NCBI GenBank assembly: GCA_009779935.1
Contig: WRAX01000005.1
Span: forward strand, 24,248 to 88,247
Direction: 5' to 3'
Length of the DNA: 64,000 bases
Source: Defluviitaleaceae bacterium
GTDB taxonomy: Bacteria > Bacillota > Clostridia > Lachnospirales > WRAX01
Shown here in pieces: positions 3,111 through 37,137 of this stretch. The stretch's first letter is position 1, and each line of letters opens with the position of its first letter. The notes under the pieces are model-generated. The model was not told the origin of the DNA and did not search any database. It saw only the letters and a program-made list of their open reading frames with translations. Both the position numbers and the translations under genes were made by a program.

Positions 3111-3142
3111 CTTTTCCATGATTGAGAATGGAATTGGCATAA
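3111..3142. repeat. 32-nt repeat, copy 1 (second copy at 55862-55893)
   Basis: CTTTTCCATGATTGAGAATGGAATTGGCATAA; 31/32 identical to 55862-55893, same orientation; contains TTCCAT..ATGGAA hairpin. Confidence 0.8.
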
Positions 3143-3249
3143 CAGCATCCCCCCCAAGCTTACAGTTGCGCTTGGGGGGAATTGCCATTAAAGTTTGCCT
3201 TGACAAGTGCCGATATAATATTGTAAACTATATTAACGTGTAACAGCCC

Positions 3250-19642: not shown

Positions 19643-20092
19643 ATGTACAGCGAAAAAGTGATGGACCATTTTATGAACCCCCGAAACATGGGCGAAATTG
19701 AAAATGCCAGCGGTGTTGGTTTGGTGGGCAACCCAAAATGCGGGGATATTATGAAAATTTACTTGGATATTGATGAAGCGGGCGTTATCCGTGATGCCAA
19801 ATTCCGCACCTTTGGCTGTGGGGCGGCGGTTGCTACCTCTTCCATTTCTACGGAGATGATTGTTGGCAAAACCGTACAACAGGCCATGGAAGTGACCAAT
19901 AAGCATGTAACAGAAGCCCTGGACGGCTTGCCGCCGTTAAAGGTGCATTGCTCCCTTTTAGCGGAAGAAGCCATACGATCCGCTTTATGGGATTATGCCC
20001 AGAAAAAGGGCATTGTGATTGATGGGCTGGAAAAACCCTGTGATGACCACGACCATCACCATCACGACCATGACCATGATGATGAGGATTAG
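19643..20092 (+). CDS. nifU: Fe-S cluster assembly scaffold (NifU N-terminal/IscU type) with His/Asp-rich tail
   Basis: GNPKCGD, FRTFGCGAAVA, KVHCSLLAEEA scaffold cysteines; C-terminal CDDHDHHHHDHDHDDED. Confidence 0.9.
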   Translation: MYSEKVMDHFMNPRNMGEIENASGVGLVGNPKCGDIMKIYLDIDEAGVIRDAKFRTFGCGAAVATSSISTEMIVGKTVQQAMEVTNKHVTEALDGLPPLKVHCSLLAEEAIRSALWDYAQKKGIVIDGLEKPCDDHDHHHHDHDHDDED

Positions 20093-20133: not shown

Positions 20134-20171
20134 ATAATAGTATATTTGTGTAATATTTTCTAAAAAAGTTG

Positions 20172-20199
20172 TTGACAAAAAAAGGGGGGGTGCTATAAT
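20172..20199 (+). promoter_or_regulatory. promoter with G7 tract in the spacer
   Basis: TTGACA 20172-20177, 16-nt spacer containing GGGGGGG 20184-20190, TGCTATAAT (TATAAT 20194-20199). Confidence 0.6.
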
Positions 20200-20282
20200 G
20201 TAGGTATCATATGGTTGACGATTAAATACAGCGGTGTGTACAGCCCTGTATCCTAAAAATTATTTGTGTATAGGAGGAAGCT

Positions 20283-21077
20283 ATGTATAAGAAAATTGGA
20301 ATGGTTGCATTGCTGGCACTTGTTATGGTTATGGGCGGCATTATATCCCCACAGATAACTTCTGCCGACACCACACGGCCTTTGGCAGCATCGCTAAATT
20401 TAAGCCAACATAATGTTTCGTTGGATGGATATGTGACTACTATGCTGGTAGAGGAAGCCGGGCTTTCCATAGGCTTGTGGGTGGAATATTTACCAGCTAC
20501 ACAATTTGGCAGCGACTTCTCAATAAGACCCCAAGAAGCAATTCCAAAGCTTTTTGTGCATGAAGTCCGAAACGCCGAAAATGGCGGGCTTTACATAAAT
20601 ATTGCCTGGGTTTCTCTGGATAAGGCTATGGAGGTGCTTGGTGTTAACCTATTAATGGATATTGGCAGACGAAATATTGAGGCATTTGAAATACTCGATT
20701 CCATGAGCCTTATGCGTGCCGGAGGGAATGTAAATGTATCTATAAATTTCATTTCCCCTTTGGCCTATTCGGTCTCTGTCACAAATAGAGGATTTGTGCC
20801 CGGGATAACAACAATAACCACAAGCGGCAGGCGCTTAAACGGCTCTAATTACATAGAATTACATGGGACAGGGCCACTACTTCCCGGTATGACGGAAGCA
20901 TCTGCCGGGTGGACCGGTTCTGGCAATGGTGACATTGTTAATTTTTTAACCACCAGCATTAACACCACATTTATTCACCCTAGTGGCGTAAAGGGTTTTG
21001 GGGTAGGGGGCGGTGTTGTGCCCAATCCGTTTTCTGTGGGCATTCCCCACTTTTATGGCGGATATGACACCAATTAG
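20283..21077 (+). CDS. secreted hypothetical protein (paralogue A)
   Basis: Signal peptide MYKKIGMVALLALVMVMGGIISPQITSA; weak C-terminal similarity (SAGWTGSGNG) to the 22669 ORF. Confidence 0.65.
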   Translation: MYKKIGMVALLALVMVMGGIISPQITSADTTRPLAASLNLSQHNVSLDGYVTTMLVEEAGLSIGLWVEYLPATQFGSDFSIRPQEAIPKLFVHEVRNAENGGLYINIAWVSLDKAMEVLGVNLLMDIGRRNIEAFEILDSMSLMRAGGNVNVSINFISPLAYSVSVTNRGFVPGITTITTSGRRLNGSNYIELHGTGPLLPGMTEASAGWTGSGNGDIVNFLTTSINTTFIHPSGVKGFGVGGGVVPNPFSVGIPHFYGGYDTN

Positions 21078-21102
21078 CTATCTTAAAATTTTACATAGCA
21101 AA

Positions 21103-21158
21103 GCTGCGCCGTATAAGCGCAGTTTTTATTTGACTTGCAACTGTTTGGCTGGTATAAT
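21103..21158 (+). promoter_or_regulatory. terminator-promoter cassette, copy A (terminates 20283 gene, drives lysC)
   Basis: Hairpin CTGCGC..GCGCAG + T-run, then TTGACT 21130-21135, 17 nt, TGGTATAAT (TATAAT 21153-21158); near-identical to 25955-26010. Confidence 0.6.
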
Positions 21159-21191
21159 TTGTAATGACCAATAACGAACGGGGGCTGGAAA

Positions 21192-22412
21192 TTGCTTATT
21201 GTACAAAAATACGGCGGCAGCTCCGTAGCTACTTTGGAGTTGATGGAGGCCATAGCAAACCGAATAACAAAAACCAAGGAAACAGGGGCAAAGCTGGTTG
21301 TGGTTTTGTCCGCACAGGGCGATACCACAAATAAGCTTATGGGGCTGGCAAACAGTGCAAACCCCACAGGCAGCAAAAGGGAGCGGGACATGCTTTTGTC
21401 CATAGGGGAGCAGCAGTCCATTGCGCTTATGGCACTTATTTTGCAACGGATGGGGCATGGGGCAAAGTCCCTAACAGGCAGGCAGGCAGGGATTTTTACC
21501 ACCAGCCGCCATGGGGATGCCCGTATAAAACAAATTAAAACCGAGCGCATTGCAAAGGAGCTGGACGAGGGCAATATTGTGCTTGTGGCGGGCTTTCAAG
21601 GCGAATCCGAATTTGGGGACATTACCACCCTTGGGCGGGGCGGGTCCGACACAACGGCGGTTGCGCTGGCCGCTGCACTAAATGCTGATAAATGCGAGAT
21701 TTATACCGATGTGGCCGGGGTTTATTCTGCTGACCCACGTATCGTGGCGGATGCTGTCAAGCTACCTGAAATCAGCTACAACGAAATGGTGGAACTGTCC
21801 AGTATGGGAGCTAAGGTGCTTGAAAAACGCTCGGTTGGGCTTGCCAAAAAATATGGCGTGCCATTGTGGGTGCTTTCCAGCCACGGGGATGAGGAAGGCA
21901 CAGTAATTAAGGAGGAATGCAGCGTGGAAGGGATTTTTGTAAGTGGTGTGGTTGCCAATAAAAACATTGCCCGCATCTCAGTATCAGGCATAAAGGACCA
22001 GCCCGGCGTATGGTTTAAGATTTTTAATACCATGAACCAATCAGACATAGCCATTGATTTTGTTTACCAAACCAAACATGCAGGCGGCACCAAGGATATA
22101 AGCTTTATAGTGGACATTAACCGCCTTGATGATGCCAAAAAAGCCATAGAAGCCAATGCCCACAAAATAACCCACGCCGCCATAACCCATGATACGGATA
22201 TGGCGAAGGTTTCCGCCGTATCCACGGGCATGGCAACCAACCCCGGCGTGCCAAGCCTTATGTTTGAAGCCCTTTTTGATGCTGGCATTAACATTGATAG
22301 TGTGTCCACTTCCGAAATACGTGTTAGTGTACTTATAAACAAAGAACATGCTGACCGTGCCGCACAAGTTATCCACAAAAAATTTCAGGATGAGAAGTAT
22401 ATTAGGGGTTAG
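21192..22412 (+). CDS. lysC: aspartate kinase
   Basis: 406 aa; LIVQKYGGSSV N-terminus, TLGRGGSDTTA motif, two C-terminal ACT-like regions; TTG start. Confidence 0.9.
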   Translation: MLIVQKYGGSSVATLELMEAIANRITKTKETGAKLVVVLSAQGDTTNKLMGLANSANPTGSKRERDMLLSIGEQQSIALMALILQRMGHGAKSLTGRQAGIFTTSRHGDARIKQIKTERIAKELDEGNIVLVAGFQGESEFGDITTLGRGGSDTTAVALAAALNADKCEIYTDVAGVYSADPRIVADAVKLPEISYNEMVELSSMGAKVLEKRSVGLAKKYGVPLWVLSSHGDEEGTVIKEECSVEGIFVSGVVANKNIARISVSGIKDQPGVWFKIFNTMNQSDIAIDFVYQTKHAGGTKDISFIVDINRLDDAKKAIEANAHKITHAAITHDTDMAKVSAVSTGMATNPGVPSLMFEALFDAGINIDSVSTSEIRVSVLINKEHADRAAQVIHKKFQDEKYIRG

Positions 22413-22436
22413 TTAATTAGGAGATGGGATATGCAA

Positions 22437-22467
22437 CTGCGTCCATGTGGCGCAGTTTTTTTGTTTG
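22437..22467 (+). terminator. lysC terminator (copy B of repeated terminator)
   Basis: CTGCGTCCATGTGGCGCAG + T7; same sequence recurs at 25955-25984. Confidence 0.7.
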
Positions 22468-22532
22468 GAATGCAGCATAAAGAATGATATACAAAAAGAA
22501 AATAATAAATTATATTATTTTACAAAAAATCC

Positions 22533-22562
22533 TTGACAGAAGCAGGGGGGGGGTGATATAAT
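22533..22562 (+). promoter_or_regulatory. promoter with G9 tract in the spacer
   Basis: TTGACA 22533-22538, 18-nt spacer containing nine G 22545-22553, TGATATAAT (TATAAT 22557-22562). Confidence 0.6.
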
Positions 22563-22668
22563 ATGTATATCATATATGATTGATAAAGGCATAAGCAGTG
22601 TGTACAACTTCTTTTGTCGCCAAACAAAGCGGCTTTGGCCGCAAGATTACATAAGGAGGAATTTCTAA

Positions 22669-23340
22669 ATGAGGTTTAAAAATAGGATTTTTGCAGGTGT
22701 TTTTGCAGCGGCGATGGCTTTTTCTTCGGTATCTGCATTTGCCGCAGATGCAAATGAACAAATCGGTTTTGAAACTAACTATTCGCTGGTCAACAAGGTT
22801 GCTTCCATTACTGATGCGTGCATTGTTATAGTGAGCAGTCTGAATGGGGCAGAAGTTAATCCATTCATCCACAACCAGATTAAAGTAAGTATACAGACGG
22901 GAGATGCTTCGCATGCAATTGATATAATGGCTCAGCATGGTCTTGCACTTACTGTTAAAACGCCTGTGAATGCACATGGCGTAGATACCAGATTGTTTCC
23001 GGAGGAAATTTTTGACATAACACAATCATCCTTTCATCAATTTAGATATAATAACAATCCTCGATATGGTGCTGATGTATCCGTTATTACTCACGGGAGA
23101 GTGAGGGTTGATGGGAATGGTTTTGTACACGGGATTGGATTCCCATCTGTTAGCTTCAATGCAACCCAAACGTTCGGATTTAGGACAGAATTTTCGAATG
23201 TTTCTGCTGGATGGCAGGGTTCTGGCGGCAGAAGTATAAGCGTGACAGGTAGCTTTAGAACAACGATAGTTGCGTCCTTTGTTATAGGTGCTACTGGAGT
23301 GGAATTTGCACCAAGAAGCTTTAATCACAGGAAATTTTAG
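22669..23340 (+). CDS. secreted hypothetical protein (paralogue B)
   Basis: Signal peptide MRFKNRIFAGVFAAAMAFSSVSAFA; SAGWQGSGGR motif shared with paralogue A; RBS AAGGAGG. Confidence 0.65.
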   Translation: MRFKNRIFAGVFAAAMAFSSVSAFAADANEQIGFETNYSLVNKVASITDACIVIVSSLNGAEVNPFIHNQIKVSIQTGDASHAIDIMAQHGLALTVKTPVNAHGVDTRLFPEEIFDITQSSFHQFRYNNNPRYGADVSVITHGRVRVDGNGFVHGIGFPSVSFNATQTFGFRTEFSNVSAGWQGSGGRSISVTGSFRTTIVASFVIGATGVEFAPRSFNHRKF

Positions 23341-23348
23341 TAACACCC

Positions 23349-23388
23349 AAAACATCAACCACGATAATGCGTGGTTGATGTTTTGGAA
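23349..23388 (+). terminator. terminator after 22669 gene
   Basis: 15-bp arms AAAACATCAACCACG/CGTGGTTGATGTTTT. Confidence 0.65.
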
Positions 23389-23506: not shown

Positions 23507-24673
23507 CTATCTAAGAGCTTCGGGGTCAAACATAATACCTTTAGTTTCTAACGCATAAATCAACCGCACTAACTTCTTGGCGACATGACTTGTGGCAACA
23601 TCATAAGGCTTACCCTCAGCCATCTTTTTTCTAAAGTAAACGGCGAAGGTTTCGTTATGTAAACGAATGGCACGAGCGCAGTTCATCAGCGCATTGCGTA
23701 GATGAGAAGAGCCGCGCTTAACCATGCGTCCTTTATATTCGGTAGTGCCTGATTGAAAATGCCCCGGTTCAAGGCCTGCAAATGAAAGCATTTTGTTTGG
23801 GCTATCGAAACGACTAAAGTCGCCAAACTCCGAAACAATGATGGCAGCAGAAACAGCCCCTATGCCTTTGATGGACAAAGTGGGCGGATTTAGCTCTGTG
23901 ATTATTTCGGTGATACGGATTTCAAGCTCTTCGATTTTTGCATCGATTTGACTATGTAAATTAAGCAGAGTTTCAAGTTCGATGCGATGACACTCGCTAA
24001 AAACTCCGACAGTATCTTTAGCCAGAGATTTTAACCTAATAAACTTGTCCATAGAAAAATGGCCTCGTGATTTACGGCGAAGAATGTCATATGAACGGGA
24101 GTTCATGTTAGCGATGGCATCAGGTGACGGATAGTTAGCAAGAATATACAATGCCGTCACTGAAAACTTGTTGTTAAAAAGTGACTTAAACTCAGGAAAG
24201 ATGCAGTCAAGAACATTCGTCAACTGAATCAAATAACGGCTTCTGCCCTTAACCAAGCTGCTTCTAAGTCGTGTTAGCTGCTTTAAGGCAAATCTGGGAT
24301 AGAACGCAGTGGGATGTTGTCGATATTCTTTTGAAGCGACATAATCAGCAATAGCTCTTGCGTCCAACTTGTCCGTTTTGGTTTTACGCAAAGTATTGCT
24401 TCTGATGTGCTTGCTGATGAGAAGCGGATTGATTTCCATAAAATCAAAACCAATTTTCTCAAGAAACAACTTCAAGTTAATGCCATAGTTACCCGTTGCT
24501 TCAAGCCCGATACGAATGTTGCCAGTCCCGTATTTCTCTAATTCAGCTTGAAGCAACCCAAACCCTTGGGCGGTGTTGGCAAACGAGAAACCAGCGTTAA
24601 TCACATCACCAAAGTTGGTTTGAATAAAACAGTCATGTTTGTACTTTGAAACGTCAATACCGGCATAATACAT
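23507..24673 (-). CDS. IS110-family transposase/recombinase
   Basis: N-terminal YAGIDVSKYKHD (DEDD domain) and C-terminal LSIKGIGAVSAAIIVSEFGDFSRF...FAGLEPGHFQSG (Transposase_20-like); ATG at 24673. Confidence 0.9.
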   Translation of the reverse strand: MYYAGIDVSKYKHDCFIQTNFGDVINAGFSFANTAQGFGLLQAELEKYGTGNIRIGLEATGNYGINLKLFLEKIGFDFMEINPLLISKHIRSNTLRKTKTDKLDARAIADYVASKEYRQHPTAFYPRFALKQLTRLRSSLVKGRSRYLIQLTNVLDCIFPEFKSLFNNKFSVTALYILANYPSPDAIANMNSRSYDILRRKSRGHFSMDKFIRLKSLAKDTVGVFSECHRIELETLLNLHSQIDAKIEELEIRITEIITELNPPTLSIKGIGAVSAAIIVSEFGDFSRFDSPNKMLSFAGLEPGHFQSGTTEYKGRMVKRGSSHLRNALMNCARAIRLHNETFAVYFRKKMAEGKPYDVATSHVAKKLVRLIYALETKGIMFDPEALR

Positions 24674-24703
24674 CGGCATACCTCCAAATAATTTATTTGG
24701 CAC

Positions 24704-24890: not shown

Positions 24891-25156
24891 CAAGCAGGTA
24901 GCTACTCCTGCTCGGTATAACCGAAAAATATTATGAAAGGGGAAATATAATGGAGCTATCCCTGGAAAAGGAATAACTCCATTATACGTGATTCGATATC
25001 ATACATATAGAATTAAATAATTTCACAGGCACGCTTATAATAGTTTGGGAGGCAATTTTTGCCACATTATTACTCCATTGGGGAGTTCATATCGGTGTTA
25101 AAAGTTTTACAAATAAAGTAAAATGGCTATGCACCGCTGGTTTTTTTGCACTTTAC

Positions 25157-25348
25157 TTGGCTATTAGATTTTTTATTTTGTCAACAACTTTTCATTGGCG
25201 GAATAGTTTTTGGATATTGTTATTAGAAGCTATATTTAGTGTTTTGCGCGCCATGTCCACTCTGGGGCATGTTTTGGCTTTGGTTTTGTTGGTTCATCTC
25301 ATTATAAAAATCATTAAAAAATTGTATGTGAAAATTAAAAGCAAATAA
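25157..25348 (+). CDS. small hydrophobic ORF, possibly a 5'-truncated membrane-protein gene
   Basis: Frame is open back to about 24995 without an ATG; hydrophobic translation; AT-rich. Confidence 0.25.
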   Translation: MAIRFFILSTTFHWRNSFWILLLEAIFSVLRAMSTLGHVLALVLLVHLIIKIIKKLYVKIKSK

Positions 25349-35460: not shown

Positions 35461-35544
35461 GACTTTTGACCAAGTTTAATTTCGCTTTTTTCACCACACT
35501 ACATGGATTTTTATCATCAAAACGAAAGTGAAGGGGGGGTGCAA

Positions 35545-37137
35545 ATGTTAAAAATTTTAAAAATAATACTAAAAGAGCCGTCATCTAAGATAATTTTGGC
35601 ACTTTATCCTTTAATCGCTTTGCTGTCGGGTATTTTGCTAGTATATAGCAATGATATGCTCAGAAATGTTTTCAACAACCACATAATGCTATTAGAGTTT
35701 AACAACTTTTTATATAGCACCCTGTTTGTAGTTGGACTATTTGTTTCATTATTCCTTTTAAGGGTTGTGAACTCATATATTAAAGAGAAACTTCATCATA
35801 CAGGTGCGAATAATTTAATTGAGCACTACACAAACAAACTACTAAAAGCAGACTATTCATACTATCACAAAAAAGAAGCACCAGCAATTTGGGATAAGTT
35901 AGAAAGGTCTACTATTGGTACAGGGAATTTCTTTGGGTCGCTCATAAGTTCTATTAGTACAATGATAAGTTTTGTTTTTTATGCAATTGTTATATTTAGA
36001 ATAAATTTATTTGCAGGATTGATAACAATGATAGCTATTCCTATTTATTTCTTTCTTACTGTCGGATTTAATAAAAATTTCATGTCCTTGCAGATGGAGC
36101 TGGCTAATAGCATGGGGCAACTGGCTGTGGTGGGTCAAGAACCTCTCGAAAATGTGGTGAACGTAAAAACAAAAAATGCATATGGTTTTTTTGTGAATCG
36201 AATAATGAAGATACAAAGAAAAATATCCAAACTGTTTCGTAAGTTCAATGTTTTGTCTGAATATCATAATGGCATAACGGGTCTTGTGTCTGTCGTTGTA
36301 CCCATCTTGGTATTATTTGCTACATTGCAGGTTTCGGACACATTTACAACAGATATGGGGACAGTGCTGATACTTTATATTAACATACCGCTGTTTTTAA
36401 GTGGATTTACAAGCATTTACAAGAAATATATTATGTACAAAACCCACAGACATTTCATAAACGGTCTCCTAGAATTTGACGATATGCCCATAGAACATAG
36501 CGGGGAGATAGAAATAAATGACTTTGAAAACCTAGAAGTAAAAGGGGTTAAGGTGCGCTTTGACGATACACGAATTATCAGTATTCCTGATTTCGTTGTG
36601 AAAAAAGGAGAAAGAGTAATGATATTTGGGGAGAGCGGAATAGGCAAATCAACCATCTTCAACATTATAGTTGGCATTCATACAGAATACGAGGGCGATA
36701 TAATAATTAACGGTATTAATTTGCGAAATATCAGCACCTATTCCTTGCGTAATGTTTTTGGTATCGTTTTACAATCTGTCAATATTTTCTCCATGTCACT
36801 GGAAGACAATATCTTGTTAGGCATTCCCAATGACAATTTGAATGAATCAGTTAGCCTTGCCAACCTTAAAGAACAAATGGATTTTAAGGTCGACCAGGAA
36901 CTAAATAACAAAGTTGTGTCGGGTGGCGAAAAATCGCGTGTTGGGTTAGCTCAGACCCTAGCTCGCAATACCCAAGTGTTGATGATAGACGAAACGTTTT
37001 CCAGTATAGATGAAGGAATGGAAGAGCGTATAGTTAAGGGGCTTTTTGAAATGCATCCACACAAAACCTTTATATGTATCAGCCATCGCAGTTCAAGCCA
37101 GACTTATTTTGATAAATTCGTGGACTTCAATTTATGA
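35545..37137 (+). CDS. ABC exporter, fused TMD-NBD half transporter
   Basis: ATG 35545 after RBS GAAGGGGGGG; 5-6 TM then Walker A GESGIGKST, signature VSGGEKSRVGLA, Walker B VLMIDETFSSID; no N-terminal C39 peptidase domain. Confidence 0.85.
   Translation: MLKILKIILKEPSSKIILALYPLIALLSGILLVYSNDMLRNVFNNHIMLLEFNNFLYSTLFVVGLFVSLFLLRVVNSYIKEKLHHTGANNLIEHYTNKLLKADYSYYHKKEAPAIWDKLERSTIGTGNFFGSLISSISTMISFVFYAIVIFRINLFAGLITMIAIPIYFFLTVGFNKNFMSLQMELANSMGQLAVVGQEPLENVVNVKTKNAYGFFVNRIMKIQRKISKLFRKFNVLSEYHNGITGLVSVVVPILVLFATLQVSDTFTTDMGTVLILYINIPLFLSGFTSIYKKYIMYKTHRHFINGLLEFDDMPIEHSGEIEINDFENLEVKGVKVRFDDTRIISIPDFVVKKGERVMIFGESGIGKSTIFNIIVGIHTEYEGDIIINGINLRNISTYSLRNVFGIVLQSVNIFSMSLEDNILLGIPNDNLNESVSLANLKEQMDFKVDQELNNKVVSGGEKSRVGLAQTLARNTQVLMIDETFSSIDEGMEERIVKGLFEMHPHKTFICISHRSSSQTYFDKFVDFNL

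Follow-up and report, generated by a model that had tools for sequence, protein, structure and literature searches.

Can a run of guanines inside a promoter serve as an adjustable setting for the gene downstream? In Neisseria meningitidis porA and Treponema pallidum tp0126, poly-G between the -35 and -10 elements sets their spacing, with an optimum of 17 nt (PMC7864442). We asked whether the same may hold for two promoters, P1 and P2, of a Defluviitaleaceae bacterium. They are located in a 64-kb stretch of contig WRAX01000005.1 (hereafter the window, meaning the whole stretch that was analyzed), upstream of p1 and p2, two genes for proteins with signal peptides. Between its -35 and -10 elements P1 carries seven consecutive guanines (G7) and P2 carries nine (G9). 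Our analysis makes the pair a plausible promoter-spacer switch of the porA/tp0126 type, with the switching itself a candidate.

Direct reading and a promoter scan bore out, correct to the base, the layout that the original prediction had given for both regions: TTGACA, a G run, TGnTATAAT, and a shared leader (Table 1). Both predicted promoters match the consensus hexamers at 12 of 12 positions, and each has a TGn extended -10. The A-rich stretch upstream of the -35 hexamer, AAAAAAGTTG in P1, is conserved as AAAAAATCC in P2 and resembles an UP element. As had also been claimed, G7 gives a 16-nt spacer and G9 an 18-nt spacer, each one G off the 17-nt optimum. The difference in spacer length is confined to the G run, as slippage would leave it. 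The nine spacer positions outside the run align without gaps, with differences at four. Over all seven aligned positions the G run itself is unbroken in both promoters, an outcome with a chance of about 0.02 (0.56^7, our own calculation) had these positions diverged as the rest of the spacer did. In P1 and P2 alike, the distance between -35 and -10 is set by the G tract.

The similarity of the two regions continues past the promoters. The leader blocks TATCATAT, TTGA, and AGCnGTGTGTACA are common to P1 and P2 at matching positions and absent from the rest of the 64 kb; the third block, matched in position between the leaders and likewise confined to them, reads AGCnGTGTGTACAnC. The first block, TATCATAT, starts 5 nt past the -10 element in both cases and overlaps the predicted transcription start (at about 20206 for P1 and about 22569 for P2). 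The combination TATAAT-N5-TATCATAT is found at these two sites only (0.05 expected), and the two occurrences of GTGTGTACA in the window are both in these leaders, ~35 nt downstream of each -10 (0.23 expected). A perfect TTGACA-N16-18-TATAAT is present at three sites in the window (0.07 expected), two of which are P1 and P2. In all, the homology covers a promoter-leader of ~75 nt with three perfectly conserved blocks amid otherwise diverged sequence. Because such consensus sites are rare and the leader blocks are unique in the window, the regions upstream of p1 and p2 are homologous copies of one promoter-leader module. By this comparison of sequences, the module is genuinely duplicated ahead of different genes, with homology that extends beyond generic hexamers.

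A partial third copy of the -35 region and its upstream flank is found on the other strand and is probably a decayed relic of the module. It faces an IS110 element and has neither a G tract nor a -10 element. A weaker match to the CAGCGGTG of the leader lies 46 nt downstream of it (context 25100-25222).

The reading we favor, tentatively and with slightly less than even confidence, is that slippage at the two G tracts tunes p1 and p2 independently of each other. A single strong promoter-leader module of the sigma-A type would have been copied ahead of two monocistronic, lineage-specific genes for secreted proteins; its parts are, in order, the A-rich stretch, TTGACA, a spacer with the G homopolymer at its core, TGnTATAAT, and ~40 nt of conserved leader. 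Replication slippage would have produced the 2-nt difference in spacer length and would continue at low frequency, more often in G9 than in G7, giving rise to subpopulations with spacers of 15 to 19 nt. The result would be a heritable, reversible, and graded change in the transcription of each gene, independent of the other, comparable to a volume control of the porA and tp0126 kind. The conserved leader blocks may be operator sites or an RNA element with a putative partner, and would probably form a second, conventional layer of control.

Features of the tracts and of the genes agree with this reading. No homopolymer in the window, whatever its base, is longer than the G9 of P2, although the window has an A+T content of 57%; long runs are otherwise depleted there (2 A or T runs of at least 8 nt, as opposed to 17 expected). 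By length alone G9 would qualify for the hypermutable range, about eight or more for G or C, where G7 is borderline. Both p1 and p2 are fast evolving, secreted, lineage specific, and low in G+C at third codon positions (GC3), all typical of contingency loci; their GC3 values are 0.43 and 0.33, respectively, versus 0.49 to 0.53 for their neighbors.

The known systems provide a close parallel. Poly-G tracts of 7 to 11 nt between or near -35 and -10 differ in length within isolates and set promoter strength in tp0126, tprL, and porA; in T. pallidum tprL, such variation in tracts of 7 to 11 G occurs in vivo, and promoter activity changes between 8 and 10 G (PMC7864442). Like porA and tp0126, P1 and P2 have a G run of similar length in the spacer of a sigma-70-type promoter of a secreted- or surface-protein gene, with spacing around 17 nt and graded expression to be expected. 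They differ in that their perfect hexamers and TGn should make them less sensitive to spacing, and in that the tract of P1 is just G7. Moreover, P1 and P2 are predicted promoters, length variation was not observed among the one-strain assemblies, and the host is an uncultured, nonpathogenic termite-gut member of the Bacillota. The tprE/G/J/L genes of T. pallidum resemble our pair in having related promoters within one genome, each with a poly-G length of its own and independent variation. However, the tpr genes are clear paralogs for outer membrane proteins, whereas the coding regions of p1 and p2 have no significant homology and share the promoter-leader alone. The promoter tracts of Mycoplasma hyorhinis vlp (poly-A) and Bordetella pertussis fim (poly-C) are much longer, at 13 to 20 nt. 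These too are homopolymers in the promoter regions of surface-protein multigene sets whose members switch independently, but the base and the geometry are different, the fim tract being located between the activator site and -10.

Two further claims of the original prediction need to be revised in light of this architecture. Expression of the two genes had been proposed to be reciprocal or stochastically on or off. As for on/off switching, general promoter knowledge suggests that a perfect -35 and -10 together with TGn should keep promoters with 16- and 18-nt spacers active; gain or loss of one G would then adjust the level of expression instead of turning it on or off. As for reciprocity, the tracts lie 2.4 kb apart as independent loci, and no mechanism couples them, so it has no basis.

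We then compared tract lengths between assemblies. Exact-protein look-ups with p1, p2, and NifU recovered the locus from ERZ27257297, SRR10512952, SRR5215140, and IMG 3300010369; look-ups with aspartate kinase and the IS110 transposase returned nothing new. The IMG data set comes from a higher termite, Labiotermes labralis, and from the segment of its gut designated P1 (PMC7800795). The source organism is a Defluviitaleaceae metagenome-assembled genome (MAG) from the gut of a higher termite. Contigs carrying the locus were 99.96 to 100% identical to the window (0 to 2 mismatches over 1 to 9 kb). All of the assemblies represent essentially one strain, as consensus sequences from termite-gut samples, and some were probably built from the same reads, so the comparison has little power to reveal tract variation. 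ERZ27257297 is probably the assembly of SRR10512952, because the offsets of the accessions match those of the pair ERZ27257300/SRR10512955, both of which carry a distant relative of p1 (P0005, described below). At most two or three independent read sets carry the locus.

Two contigs, L005 (JGI, Labiotermes sample) and L007 (Logan, SRR10512952), begin inside the G9 tract at position 22549. Length heterogeneity was considered as the cause of these breaks and rejected. The JGI contig L032, from the same sample as L005, spans an intact G9 and ends ~50 nt later; the JGI break is therefore a branch or an error past the homopolymer, not a length difference. Similarly, the ERZ27257297 assembly crosses G9 where the Logan contig begins inside the tract. 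L032 differs from the window and from the overlapping contig of the same sample by an A-to-C mismatch at 22574 (L032 position 5432), inside TATCATAT and 21 nt past G9; this mismatch reflects either an error of sequencing after the homopolymer or a genuine minor allele. L032 also has a T-to-A change at 21767, in the aspartate kinase gene.

Several points weigh against slippage-tuned expression. No tract-length variant was found among these one-strain consensus sequences (G7 in four assemblies and G9 in three), which is weak evidence, and the contig breaks in G9 show no length heterogeneity. G runs of at least 7 nt are not overrepresented in the window: under a first-order Markov model, 5.5 are expected and 3 were observed, while for at least G9 the numbers are 0.44 and 1, respectively. 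The nonrandom feature is the position of the G runs in two homologous consensus promoters and not the G runs as such. The G7 tract of P1 is at or below the usual hypermutable range, and the perfect hexamers with TGn should buffer a change of 1 nt in either direction. Since P1 and P2 derive from a common ancestor, their tracts represent a single origin and not two independent observations. Start sites and expression are themselves predictions from the DNA. Finally, the promoter of the P0005 gene, the sole readable promoter of a homolog, is TTGACT-17-TGgTATAAT, with no homopolymer and no shared leader.

The main rival is a promoter that is duplicated but static. Its G run would be a spacer segment, either conserved or neutral, in a strong promoter that is constitutive or under conventional regulation, and the 2-nt difference would be an old fixed indel; we regard this as a serious possibility, if one somewhat short of an even chance. 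The 16- and 18-nt spacers would then both work through the extended -10, and slippage would be too rare (given presumed mismatch repair and the shortness of G7 and G9) or too weak to matter. The lack of any difference in tract length between assemblies, the shortness of G7, the buffering expected from a perfect -35 and -10 with TGn, the number of G runs of at least 7 nt at or below the Markov expectation, and the promoter of the P0005 gene without any tract are all in line with such a promoter, and the block-wise conservation of TATCATAT and GTGTGTACA needs no slippage to explain it. Yet a static spacer would be filled here with a slippage-prone homopolymer in a window where long runs are otherwise avoided, both copies would happen to be exactly one G from the optimum, and the change in length would happen to be confined to the tract.

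Alternatively, a dedicated transcription factor, or some other regulator that binds DNA or RNA, could recognize the G block, TATCATAT, and GTGTGTACA together as its site, making p1 and p2 a coregulated pair in a small regulon; the conservation would then stem from coregulation and not from mutability. Three perfectly conserved blocks in an otherwise diverged 75-nt region would suit such a site, as would the palindromes within the blocks: CATATG (P1), TCATATATGA (P2), and TGTACA. The leader is also unexplained by a known RNA family or a stable fold. Rfam gave no match to the leaders at the gathering threshold in the whole window or at E values of up to 1 between 20100 and 25400, and the predicted leader folds are no better than those of shuffled sequence (z = -0.56 and -1.07); a riboswitch or other known leader RNA in the shared 5' untranslated region was rejected on these grounds. 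A second promoter within the leader (TTGAcg/TTGAta ... TACAgc/TACAac) was rejected by eye because its -10 element lacks the invariant T at the sixth position. However, a protein site would poorly tolerate an internal length change of 2 nt, no regulator gene adjoins either copy, and neither the window nor the scanned public collections yielded further copies of the motif. We consider such a site improbable as the explanation of the G tract; it would in any case be compatible with slippage and not exclusive of it.

The collections were scanned with the pattern TATCATAT-N2-4-TTGA-N9-14-GTGTGTACA. Four matches were found in the species representatives of GTDB and 16 stretches in metagenome contigs, all unrelated and in approximately the number expected by chance; 11 of the 16 were one recurring sequence, mostly from human-gut assemblies. 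Viral contigs contained no match. None of the matches was a promoter of the P1/P2 kind, in collections that evidently do not include this MAG and so leave its other copies uncounted. In the window itself, a scan for other promoters with G or C runs found none with a credible consensus.

Miscalled G-run lengths are very improbable: artefacts of Illumina sequencing on G-tract templates are documented (PMC9187656) and two contigs start inside G9, but the same G7 and G9 came from MEGAHIT-type, JGI, and Logan assemblies and from at least two to three read sets, and agreement between independent assemblers makes an artefact unlikely.

The relationship between the two proteins was examined separately. 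That p1 and p2 encode signal-peptide proteins was confirmed by inspection: both have Sec-type signal peptides, with putative cleavage at MYKKIGMVALLALVMVMGGIISPQITSA/D and MRFKNRIFAGVFAAAMAFSSVSAFA/A, respectively. The N-terminal signal peptide marks them as secreted or surface proteins, and neither has a lipobox or an LPXTG motif. The description of the pair as paralogous, distantly related genes did not hold up. A single pairwise BLASTP comparison gave E = 0.007 over 77 residues, while phmmer against the open reading frames (ORFs) of the window gave E = 0.33 to 0.35 and a hidden Markov model of the p1 family gave E = 0.38 for p2. The probability assigned by hhalign was 1.2% over 13 columns, which correspond to a SAGWxGSG motif. 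By these comparisons the homology of the proteins is not significant and paralogy is not demonstrable. With the SAGWxGSG motif shared, an ancient gene duplication followed by rapid protein divergence may still be a candidate origin of the pair.

Both proteins are restricted in distribution. Pfam and NCBIfam contain no family or domain for either. In a word-indexed search of 5.8 billion proteins, p1 and p2 each matched only themselves (hypothetical, "MAG: Defluviitaleaceae bacterium"). An exhaustive HMMER search of 1.84 billion representatives revealed two distant relatives of p1, P0003 (E = 2.5e-10) and P0005 (E = 5.4e-7), and a profile search gave no others; p2 is an orphan, with no homolog besides itself in the searches run. 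P0005 comes from another termite-gut Defluviitaleaceae MAG (loci L029-L031; gene at 1718-2590 in L029). Its gene is flanked by a peptidase M23 gene and by trigger factor-ClpP-ClpX genes, a context different from that of p1; thus, the p1 family is not syntenic. The promoter of the P0003 gene cannot be read because its contig includes just 37 nt of upstream sequence. The AlphaFold model built for p1 from a three-sequence alignment is mostly beta-strand and of low confidence (pLDDT 49), and a Foldseek search of this model against the PDB gave only nonsignificant beta-sandwich matches.

How the module came to precede both genes bears on its significance. Matus-Garcia et al. are said to have described, in NAR in 2012, putative mobile or propagated promoters, that is, homologous upstream regions ahead of unrelated genes. 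P1 and P2 resemble these in that a 5-kb region beside an IS110 element contains a promoter-leader of ~75 to 100 nt twice in full and once in part, ahead of genes without demonstrable homology. They differ in that the window and the scanned collections yielded no sign of transposition, no flanking repeats, and no additional copies. A portable cassette with a poly-G "dial" in a Clostridia-class symbiont, copied to unrelated secreted-protein genes and creating stochastic heritable heterogeneity by promoter propagation instead of gene duplication, is an unlikely extension of the slippage reading.

To our knowledge, nearly all documented homopolymer switches in promoter spacers come from pathogens adapted to a host (Neisseria, Treponema, Bordetella, and Mycoplasma). 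Slippage tuning at P1 and P2, if true, would extend contingency-locus biology to mutualistic insect-gut communities, here to an uncultured termite-gut symbiont of the Bacillota. It would also mean that a promoter module carries its own mutability to new genes, and would be notable in that the shared unit is the promoter-leader and not demonstrably paralogous genes. The gut commensal B. breve also uses G-tract slippage (PMC9187656). At present, P1 and P2 are a clean, testable candidate rather than a discovery, and the tract coordinates in Table 1 are a target for read-level analysis of Labiotermes gut metagenomes.

Table 1. Coordinates of the P1 and P2 promoter-leaders, the genes they precede, and neighboring features (positions within the window)
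Feature	Position	Strand	Details
A-rich stretch 5' of P1 -35	20162-20171	+	AAAAAAGTTG, immediately 5' of -35; repeat family D1
P1 -35 hexamer	20172-20177	+	TTGACA; direct reading, promoter consensus scan
P1 spacer, 16 nt	between -35 and -10	+	AAAAAA + G7 + TGC; direct reading
P1 G7 tract	20184-20190	+	A6 directly 5' (A7 counting the last -35 base)
P1 extended -10	20191-20199	+	TGCTATAAT; TATAAT at 20194-20199
P1 conserved transcript start (predicted) and leader	20205-20244	+	TATCATAT 20205-12, TTGA 20215-18, AGCGGTGTGTACAGC 20230-44
P2 -35 hexamer	22533-22538	+	TTGACA; direct reading, promoter consensus scan
P2 spacer, 18 nt	between -35 and -10	+	GAAGCA + G9 + TGA; direct reading
P2 G9 tract	22545-22553	+	Direct reading
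P2 extended -10	22554-22562	+	TGATATAAT; TATAAT at 22557-22562
P2 conserved leader	22568-22608	+	TATCATAT 22568-75, TTGA 22580-83, AGCAGTGTGTACAAC 22594-608
Partial third copy, -35 region and upstream flank	25173-25192	-	AAAAGTTGTTGACAAAATAA; 19/20 identical to P1
Terminator upstream of P1	20107-20125		Scan
p1 (NCBI FWE21_02695)	20283-21077	+	264 aa, signal peptide; Shine-Dalgarno AGGAGG at 20272-77
Intrinsic terminator of p1	21100-21126	+	Promoter/terminator scan
Aspartate kinase gene	21192-22412		Between p1 and p2
Aspartate kinase terminator	22435-22457	+	Insulates P2 from upstream transcription; scan
p2 (NCBI FWE21_02705)	22669-23340	+	223 aa, signal peptide; Shine-Dalgarno AAGGAGG at 22653-59

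The gene order at the locus is Rrf2-IscS-ASCH-NifU, p1, aspartate kinase, p2, IS110 element, and GlgB. Terminators flank both units; p1 and p2 are therefore monocistronic, and they are insertions among housekeeping genes. Each has a strong Shine-Dalgarno sequence and is followed by a terminator or hairpin of its own. Seven nucleotides past the p2 stop codon is a perfect inverted repeat (23347-23386, + strand) with arms of 17 bp, a loop of 6 nt, and no clear T tract, which could be a terminator or stabilizer of the p2 transcript or a target-like palindrome near IS110. The IS110-family transposase gene (DEDD_Tnp_IS110 and Transposase_20; 23507-24703, - strand) is directly downstream of p2. The ends of the element are not definable because the window contains no second IS110 copy. 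Two Logan contigs terminate at 23534, in the 3' part of the element.

Three minor observations were made elsewhere in the window. A further G7 run at 35533-35539 (+ strand), GAAGGGGGGGTGCAAATG, is a second possible slippage-sensitive site; it lies in the Shine-Dalgarno region of a 530-aa ORF starting at 35546 or, if an upstream ATG at 35503 is used, within codons 11 to 13. The only other G or C run of at least 7 nt is held by a C6/G7 hairpin, CCCCCCAAGCGCAACTGTAAGCTTGGGGGGG, at 3120-3180 (- strand), probably a terminator-like stem. Lastly, the C terminus of the NifU-like protein is a His/Asp-rich tail, DDHDHHHHDHDHDDED (20040-20092, + strand), encoded by an imperfect 15-nt tandem repeat, CACGACCATCACCAT/CACGACCATGACCAT.

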